DNA of 7,640 bases from a virus (IMGVR_UViG_2651869748_000001:1-7640); one strand, 5' to 3'. Shown: positions 7,314 through 7,451, counted from the stretch's first letter. Numbers and translations: made by a program. The notes: generated by a model from the letters alone, not told the origin.

Positions 7314-7337
7314 GCACCCCCCTCCAAGAGAATGAAT

Positions 7338-7407
7338 CTTAGAATCTAAATATTTATTTATTGGTGTGTTTATAATTTCTTAGTTTCTAAGTGTCAAGAA
7401 TTCTAAG
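7338..7407. promoter_or_regulatory. Cluster of palindromic operator-like sites (CTTAG/CTAAG half-sites)
   Basis: TTAGA-A-TCTAA (7339-7349) and CTTAG-TTT-CTAAG (7379-7391) are perfect inverted repeats. A third TTCTAAG copy sits at 7401-7407 adjacent to GAATTC. All lie within about 70 nt of AT-rich DNA between divergent genes. Confidence 0.45.
7369..7397 (-). promoter_or_regulatory. Sigma70-type promoter for rep
   Basis: On the minus strand: -35 TTGACA (plus 7392-7397), a 17-nt spacer, and -10 TATAAA (plus 7369-7374), about 55 nt upstream of the rep ATG. The CTTAG-TTT-CTAAG palindrome lies inside the spacer. A plus-strand TATAAT (7371-7376) overlaps the -10 and faces the divergent small ORF. 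Confidence 0.55.
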
Positions 7408-7451
7408 TTTTGAGATGTATGATGAGGTATGAAAAAACAGAGGGGATATAT

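Follow-up and report, generated by a model that had tools for sequence, protein, structure and literature searches.

We found that a 138-bp gap (7314-7451) between a phage replication gene (rep) and a small divergent gene for a 62-aa protein, in the viral DNA IMGVR_UViG_2651869748_000001:1-7640, contains an ordered set of promoter hexamers and palindromic boxes that recurs upstream of relatives of the 62-aa gene. We call the whole stretch of 7,640 nucleotides the window. Positions 7334-7451 and the 62-aa gene together probably form a portable cassette for transcriptional control in temperate filamentous phages, in which the 62-aa protein would be the repressor of rep. The window carries an inovirus (filamentous-phage) genome, as read from its open reading frames (ORFs) and their profile matches. 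Every large ORF lies on the minus strand, and the 62-aa ORF is the sole plus-strand gene. An original prediction, made from the sequence alone, had described a compact divergent promoter/operator switch in this gap. Direct reading recovered every element that it had listed, each in its place, and such a set would hardly arise by chance. The comparative evidence below also supports reading the gap as a compact divergent promoter/operator region shared by rep and the gene of a small regulator. The features are collected in Table 1, where P_L and P_R denote the predicted promoters facing rep and the 62-aa gene, respectively, and O1 to O3 the putative operators.

Table 1. Positions of the elements of the gap and of the genes in the window
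Feature	Position	Strand	Remark
rep start	ATG 7313-7311; Shine-Dalgarno GGAGG 7326-7322	minus	read from sequence
O1, distal double box	7337-7351		TCTTAGA (centre 7340), A, TCTAAAT (centre 7348)
P_L -10 TATAAA	7374-7369	minus	predicted start near 7362
TATAAT	7371-7376	plus	candidate -10 of the original prediction
O2, proximal double box	7378-7392		TCTTAGT (centre 7381), T, TCTAAGT (centre 7389)
P_L -35 TTGACA	7397-7392	minus	TGTCAA on the plus strand
Weak candidate P_R -35 TCAAGA/CAAGAA	~7394-7400	plus	suggested by the 17-18 nt spacing to the conserved -10
O3, single box TCTAAGT	7402-7408		centre 7405; inside the predicted P_R spacer
P_R -10 TATGAT	7418-7423	plus	predicted start near 7430
Shine-Dalgarno GAGGGG of the small ORF	7440-7445	plus	6 nt before ATG 7452
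62-aa ORF	7452-7640	plus	putative repressor; 'MPTKHI' family, phrog_5219
rep	5313-7313	minus	666-aa Rep, P2-gpA type; Phage_GPA PF05840, E 6e-49
G5P-like ORF		minus	
pVIII-like major coat	4282-4542	minus	
pIII	2915-4222	minus	Gly/Ser linkers
pVI-like ORF		minus	
Zot/pI	1335-2546	minus	
Secretin/pIV	1-1224	minus	

The short palindromes are concentrated in the gap. CTTAG or CTAAG occurs five times in the 7640 bases, and four of these lie within 7338-7407. The pattern TCTWAG-NN-TCTWA has two perfect matches in the window, both in the gap (0.27 matches with at most one mismatch are expected per shuffled sequence), and TTGACA-N17-TATAAW occurs once, again in the gap (0.07 expected in shuffles). The gap itself was found in only one of 5426 complete E. 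coli genomes. Since it is nearly unique among them, its conservation was studied through relatives of the 62-aa protein. We collected 105 loci encoding such relatives, from 67 viral contigs (many of these loci are contigs of 6-7 kb) and 38 genomes. Their hosts include Pseudomonas, Aeromonas, Haemophilus, Rodentibacter, Xenorhabdus, Kangiella, Pseudoalteromonas, Methylobacter and a Bacteroidota metagenome-assembled genome (MAG). Nearly all of the 105 loci share a common upstream architecture with the consensus ...ttctAagAAaTta.att...TTAg.TTCTtAGA.tcTaaa-TGTCAA-gaaa...ta.aat..., in which TGTCAA is the P_L -35 hexamer read on the plus strand. We anchored the upstream alignments on TGTCAA and counted positions from its T.

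Among 66 non-redundant loci, CTWAG is 16-fold denser in the 170 nt upstream of the gene than elsewhere in these loci (2.44 vs 0.15 per 170 nt). The most enriched 7-mer upstream of the homologues is TCTAAGA/TCTTAGA, with 98 occurrences observed and 0.71 expected (137-fold). The distances between boxes show a sharp peak at 8 bp (70 pairs), followed by 33 and 41 bp, and the box centres of the family fall at -52, -44, -19, -11, -3/-4, +12/13 and +20 relative to TGTCAA, with a CTNAG core at -11 in 41 of 51 loci. The five box centres of the window (7340, 7348, 7381, 7389 and 7405) correspond to the family positions -52, -44, -11, -3 and +13. A degenerate box, TCAAGAA (centre 7397), is in the same 8-bp register and overlaps the candidate P_R -35. 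Judged from these alignments, the operator unit is the 7-bp palindrome TCTWAGA repeated every 8 bp. The original prediction had taken CTTAG-TTT-CTAAG as one perfect palindrome occupying the P_L spacer, flanked by two further copies of its half-site. The palindrome is indeed there (7379-7391), and O2, which includes it, fills the 17-nt spacer (7391-7375). Both flanking copies, TTAGA-A-TCTAA at 7339-7349 and TTCTAAG at 7401-7407, are also present. However, CTTAG-TTT-CTAAG and TTAGA-A-TCTAA alike are two adjacent boxes 8 bp apart, and the operator sequence, which had been regarded as this phage's own, is common to the whole 62-aa protein family.

The boxes accompany the 62-aa protein family independently of the Rep family. 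The window has a Phage_GPA Rep, while the relatives usually have, as the divergent gene, a Rep of the G2P/Phage_CRI type or small ORFs in front of one. The E. coli prophages with 94-99% nucleotide identity to the rep query have no double box anywhere. In distant homologues with long C-terminal extensions, the boxes still lie immediately upstream. A 205-aa homologue in a chromosomal island of Cedecea, beside a tyrosine recombinase, is directly preceded by six tandem CTTAGAAA repeats, and no phage genes were seen in this 6-kb locus. We also searched in the opposite direction, scanning 2.9 million viral contigs for a double box plus TGTCAA. Of the 54 matches, 31 have a homologue 52-69 nt downstream, 22 have none within 260 nt and one is at a contig end. 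We read the 22 as chance matches, because they lie mostly in unrelated coding-like DNA with one CTWAG nearby. As the boxes follow the 62-aa family and not the Rep family, the 62-aa protein is favoured as their binder over Rep or a host factor. We infer from this association that the 62-aa protein binds the boxes. We found no covariation between its N-terminal strand and the box sequence, both being essentially invariant; two loci (L103 and L104) have degenerate CTTATAA repeats alongside an unchanged N-terminus.

The promoter hexamers show the same positional conservation. TTGACA of P_L is conserved more strongly than any other element of the cassette; its information content is the highest in an alignment of 48 non-redundant loci anchored on TGTCAA. 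GTCAA (G80-A84) forms invariant columns. A TA-initial hexamer, mostly TAAnnT, is found exactly 17 nt from TTGACA in 36 of 49 non-redundant relatives; the enterobacterial subgroup that includes the window has TATAAA or TATAAC instead. Thus, the rep-facing sigma-70 promoter of the original prediction is present and positionally conserved in about 50 non-redundant relatives, although 'near-consensus' was a generous description of a promoter whose -10, TATAAA, is without the final T. On the other side, an xAxxxT hexamer (TATGAT/TATAAT/TACGAT/TAGAAT) lies 24-28 nt to the right of TGTCAA in 42 of the 49 relatives. This hexamer is typically 27-35 nt before the ATG, and TATGAT in the window is 28 nt before ATG 7452. 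The candidate P_R -35, which overlaps the P_L -35, matches TTGACA at 3 of 6 positions. Both promoters have their hexamers upstream of the respective gene and within the 16-18 nt spacing of a divergent sigma-70 pair, albeit with this 3/6 match for the P_R -35. From the conserved hexamers, P_L and P_R appear to be back-to-back sigma-70 promoters with overlapping -35 hexamers, which would start near the positions predicted in Table 1.

We then consider the 62-aa protein. It matches phrog_5219, annotated as 'unknown function', over residues 1-61 (E 1.7e-22). A word-indexed search returned 89 homologues, and 143 clusters at 50% identity were matched when 1.84 billion representatives were searched exhaustively with a profile. 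The N-terminus reads M-P-T-K-H-I-(D/N); M1, K4 and H5 do not vary, and at least 90% of the members have P2, T3 and I6. Sequence searches of Pfam, NCBIfam and the PDB gave no match for the protein, to a helix-turn-helix (HTH) or to any other family. For 35 members of the family, no match to a ribbon-helix-helix (RHH) family (such as RHH_1, RHH_3 or Arc/MetJ) was obtained with E values up to 10. An AlphaFold2 monomer model built with the family alignment (predicted local distance difference test score, 86) has residues 1-7 in an extended or coil conformation, followed by helices 8-25 and 31-45 and an extra helix 48-61. A Foldseek search of the PDB with the model found no match, and the best structural match to the model is the N-terminal RHH domain of TraM (pED208), with weak scores. 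Tandem short palindromic boxes, as expected of RHH operators, are present here as TCTWAGA with an 8-bp period. A palindromic box with a degenerate central base would fit, because the dyad of an RHH dimer sits on the centre of its site. On the model and the box pattern, RHH is our leading hypothesis for the fold, with a likelihood somewhat above even.

Several members of the family are larger. In some relatives (P0151, P0182, P0188, P0197, P0220; L100-L107), the MPTKHI domain is followed by a fused C-terminal region of ~130-220 aa, which in several of them contains a Walker-A-like YGKTNSGKST sequence and gives weak P-loop/STAND NTPase matches. P0142, P0162 and chromosomal loci of Enterobacterales have another C-terminal domain of unknown kind. 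At locus L105, six tandem CTTAGAAA repeats are located upstream of a fused homologue.

The start of the 62-aa ORF also has variants in annotation. A TTG at 7410 opens a 76-aa version, and public databases contain 72-aa and 82-aa annotations. We take 7452 as the real start because the conservation of the family begins at M-P-T-K-H-I and a Shine-Dalgarno sequence lies at 7440-7445.

These elements suggest how the cassette may work. P_L would drive rep together with the entire phage operon that lies downstream of it on that strand, while P_R would drive the 62-aa gene. The 62-aa protein would most likely be an RHH-like dimer whose invariant strand P-T-K-H-I reads the major groove, with one dimer per 7-bp TCTWAGA box and with box pairs 8 bp apart, like met-boxes for MetJ. 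Occupancy of O2 in the P_L spacer would turn rep and phage production off. O1 is 41 bp (about four helical turns) from O2 and lies in the predicted rep leader, at about +12 to +25 from the predicted P_L start; it might reinforce repression by cooperativity or as a roadblock. With O3 occupied in the P_R spacer, the repressor would limit its own synthesis. The window locus has one regulator gene only, and the bistability suggested by the original prediction is at most conjectural.

Some observations count against a repressor cassette of this kind. The P_L -10 lacks the conserved T at -7, and P_R has only a weak -35. A sigma-70 promoter scan of the window misses P_L for want of this T and, under the scan's own rules, lists neither promoter. 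The 62-aa gene persists without any box in two of the E. coli prophage variants described below (B and C). In the literature, we found no paper on the 62-aa family or the TCTWAGA motif, and no published binding, repression or transcription start for any family member.

The same promoter weaknesses would suit a 62-aa protein that is an activator or a dual regulator, for example one that switches RNA polymerase between the promoters or activates P_R. A conserved P_R -10 with a poor -35 and an imperfect enterobacterial P_L -10 (TATAAA/TATAAC) are typical of factor-dependent promoters, and RHH proteins such as AmrZ are known to activate as well as repress. However, the boxes with the strongest conservation (-11 and -3) stand between the P_L -35 and -10, a position that normally occludes RNA polymerase, and O3 sits in the P_R spacer. 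We therefore regard activation or a dual role as unlikely, though worth keeping in mind, and prefer repression of rep.

The geometry of P_R has an alternative of its own. The original prediction had the small ORF transcribed from the consensus TATAAT at 7371-7376, which would give a leader of ~70 nt running through O2, the P_L -35 and O3. TATAAT is a perfect hexamer, and one subfamily (L003, L008, L061, L063, L064, L068, L070, L099) has a TTATAA-type sequence at this place. However, there is no -35 and no TG extension for it. Because the TTATAA core is self-complementary, a -10-like hexamer on the opposite strand comes free, and the plus-strand TATAAT can be read as partly a by-product of the P_L -10. 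Most relatives have a TTAGAT-like sequence there, while all subfamilies retain the downstream TAnnAT hexamer. The family-wide rightward -10 is thus the one represented by TATGAT at 7418-7423, and the conservation pattern makes TATAAT probably the lesser candidate for the rightward promoter; transcription of the small ORF from it seems to us rather improbable.

Another explanation is that the boxes are bound by a host factor, or by Rep at iterons or an origin, and that the 62-aa protein has some other role. In its favour, binding by the 62-aa protein is deduced, and the E. coli variants B and C keep the gene without the boxes. Yet the boxes accompany the gene alongside unrelated Rep families, are absent from the prophages with 94-99% rep identity, and accompany the domain at the Cedecea locus, where no phage genes were seen. 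A single host factor is hard to reconcile with hosts that range from Enterobacterales to a Bacteroidota MAG. We found no conserved LexA site and no IHF or CRP site in the gap; the sole LexA-like match has two mismatches and is not conserved. A different binder is accordingly a poor prospect in our estimate, and the 62-aa protein remains our preferred one. Finally, AT-rich hexamers are easily found in a gap of 31% GC (rep, 55%), but the shuffle expectations given above and the 16- to 137-fold enrichment at fixed positions across the family already refute a chance origin of the palindromes and promoter-like hexamers, to which we give virtually no credence.

The LexA-box-like sequence mentioned above (CTGTTTTTTCATACCT, 7424-7439 on the minus strand) lies between the P_R -10 and the Shine-Dalgarno sequence, with both mismatches in its right arm. 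It is probably a chance match, being without conservation in the relatives. An Rfam search of the gap gave no match, and shuffled sequences fold as well as the predicted rep leader (z -0.47).

The region upstream of rep varies among E. coli prophages. In most of 40 E. coli genomes carrying this rep, the match to the window ends at the rep start codon, and four variants can be distinguished. Variant A (the window and NZ_CP159170, locus L001) has the TCTWAGA box region and the 62-aa gene. Variant B (L109) has CGCATGCG palindromes and a 71-aa ORF upstream of rep. Variant C (AST205, L002) has GTTAAC palindromes and two small ORFs, followed by an identical 62-aa gene. In variant D (L108, L110), an IS110-family transposase abuts rep and the prophage is at non-dif sites. 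The breakpoints, at ~7333 and ~7436, bracket exactly the promoter/box region. Phages that are otherwise near-identical, with rep 94-99% identical, thus differ in regulator and operator content, as allelic modules do. This pattern points to the gap region as a swappable module, as expected of an immunity region, and so does its GC content of 31% beside the 55% of rep. The boxless 62-aa copies in variants B and C may be relics, or may provide immunity in trans against box-type phages.

The two small ORFs of AST205 have no Pfam match and are RHH-like by sequence pattern only, and an hhalign comparison of the 62-aa family with the neighbouring RHH-looking ORF of AST205 revealed no relationship. 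After the stop codon of the 62-aa ORF comes a sequence of ~45 bp, CATnnTAGTTACCTATCGATACGAAGATTnCTAnGAAGCAATAT (L002 11311-11355 and 11841-11885; L001 7826-7870), which in AST205 is also found after the first small ORF. It may be a recombination joint for module insertion. In many E. coli genomes, an IS110-family ('RNA-guided') transposase directly precedes a 99%-identical rep (L108 3520-4485 and L110 3520-4485; E200139, AST85), and the prophages of this type adjoin murP or hcxB. They may represent an inovirus lineage whose integration is mediated by an IS110-type recombinase.

The closest parallel in layout is the rstR/ig-2/rstA region of CTXphi, which has a 138-bp gap, three repressor sites and a variable rstR/ig-2 part (PMC4762005). 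Like CTXphi, the phage of the window is a temperate dif-integrating filamentous phage with a small regulator gene divergent from rep and with operators in the shared gap. Its gap is likewise a compact 138 bp with back-to-back promoters and three putative repressor sites, and it is the variable, swappable part of otherwise near-identical phages. The analogy with RstR/rstA drawn in the original prediction thus holds for the layout in outline (the 138-bp gap and three repressor sites; PMC4762005), but it does not extend to the protein. RstR is an Xre/Cro-type HTH protein, and we found no homology to it; the 62-aa regulator belongs to phrog_5219 and has neither an HTH nor any other Pfam match. The operator also differs, as the 8-bp-spaced TCTWAGA array of the window is conserved across the protein family and does not differ between immunity types. 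The Rep of the window is of the P2-gpA type, unlike that of CTXphi. The SW1 repressor FpsR was considered as a homologue and ruled out; it is a 13-kDa Cro/CI-type HTH protein (PMC4762005). YpfPhi and CUS-1, analogous by layout in the YPO2273-YPO2274 region, have the same overall arrangement as the window (PMC4266046).

On the side of DNA recognition, the parallels are RHH proteins. MetJ binds tandem 8-bp palindromes (PMC3413123). The cassette resembles the met-box system in its tandem palindromic boxes, their 8-bp period and their overlap with a promoter, and one dimer per box would be the natural reading. The 62-aa protein has no sequence similarity to MetJ and offers no evidence for a corepressor; its box is TCTWAGA and not AGACGTCT, and binding in the window is a prediction. 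The RHH domain of TraM (pED208) reads the palindromic pentamer GANTC, which has a degenerate centre and occurs in multiple phased copies (PMC3159463). CTWAG in the cassette is likewise a 5-bp palindrome with a degenerate centre. By analogy, the cassette most resembles CTXphi RstR in layout and an RHH protein of the MetJ or TraM type in DNA recognition. CopG (pMV158) and omega (pSM19035) are small RHH repressors of plasmid copy control that act on a rolling-circle rep promoter through repeated short motifs. Unlike the 62-aa gene, copG is co-transcribed with rep and not divergent from it, and the families and motifs differ. ORF13 of PMBT54 is an omega-like example in an inovirus (PMC10534721).

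The genomic context identifies the window as a dif-integrated E. coli inovirus with a CUS-1/YpfPhi-like layout. The same DNA is found in E. coli chromosomes beside hipBA, in tandem copies with dif-like sequence on the flanks, consistent with a dif-integrating lifestyle as in CUS-1 and YpfPhi. Both of these phages integrate at dif and have a two-orientation layout with the regulator divergent from rep (PMC4266046). A near-identity search of phage records with the whole window gave no match. Just past the right end of the window, between the 62-aa ORF and hipA, L001 contains a dif-like AGTGCGCACAATGACGTTATGTATAAA and an inverted XerC-arm-like ATTATGCGCAC (8025-8055 and 8105-8125). Together with the tandem prophage copies in AST205, these are consistent with XerCD/dif integration of the CUS-1/YpfPhi kind.

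Two further differences were seen between the window and its relatives. The NZ_CP159170 prophage, otherwise 99.5% identical, has CAC at L001 7497-7499 in place of CAT at window 7311-7313; its rep would begin with GTG, not ATG, and might be translated more weakly. The pIII-like protein contains a long run of GGGSS/GGGNS repeats (window 3490-3730, minus strand), and its annotated length varies: 435 aa in the window, with corresponding genes of 1365 nt (L001) and 1398 nt (L002). This suggests variation of repeat number in the linker of the receptor-binding protein pIII.

Taken together, the window could be the first example of a widespread 'plug-in' immunity cassette of inoviruses, a combined picture that we put forward tentatively and consider possible rather than probable. 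It would encode one repressor of ~60 aa, from an RHH-like family that is new, and the dimers of this repressor would tile 8-bp TCTWAGA boxes in the manner of MetJ over two promoters with overlapping -35 hexamers. Promoter exclusion and one autoregulated repressor could then make a switch without a Cro-like partner, and the cassette would have been grafted onto unrelated Rep families. Stacked orphan copies in some E. coli prophages might target incoming box-type phages, as a trans-acting heteroimmunity.

To our knowledge, few cases of rep silencing in temperate filamentous phages are understood, chiefly those of CTXphi RstR, the Pf4/Pf5 repressors and SW1 FpsR. A repressor and operator upstream of rep are expected in a temperate inovirus, and it is the conserved geometry and the portability between Rep families that set this cassette apart. 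It is compact and sharply defined, and its geometry is repeated in over 100 genomes and prophages of inoviruses, which come from many Gammaproteobacteria and one Bacteroidota MAG. If the proposed role is correct, a whole PHROG would gain a functional annotation, and the motif (TCTWAGA with an 8-bp period, beside TGTCAA) would flag the regulatory region of cryptic inoviruses. The pair would also offer a very small orthogonal repressor/operator system for synthetic biology. For the phages themselves, it would help to account for immunity and the exchange of modules in the CUS-1- and YpfPhi-related prophages that are integrated at dif in E. coli.
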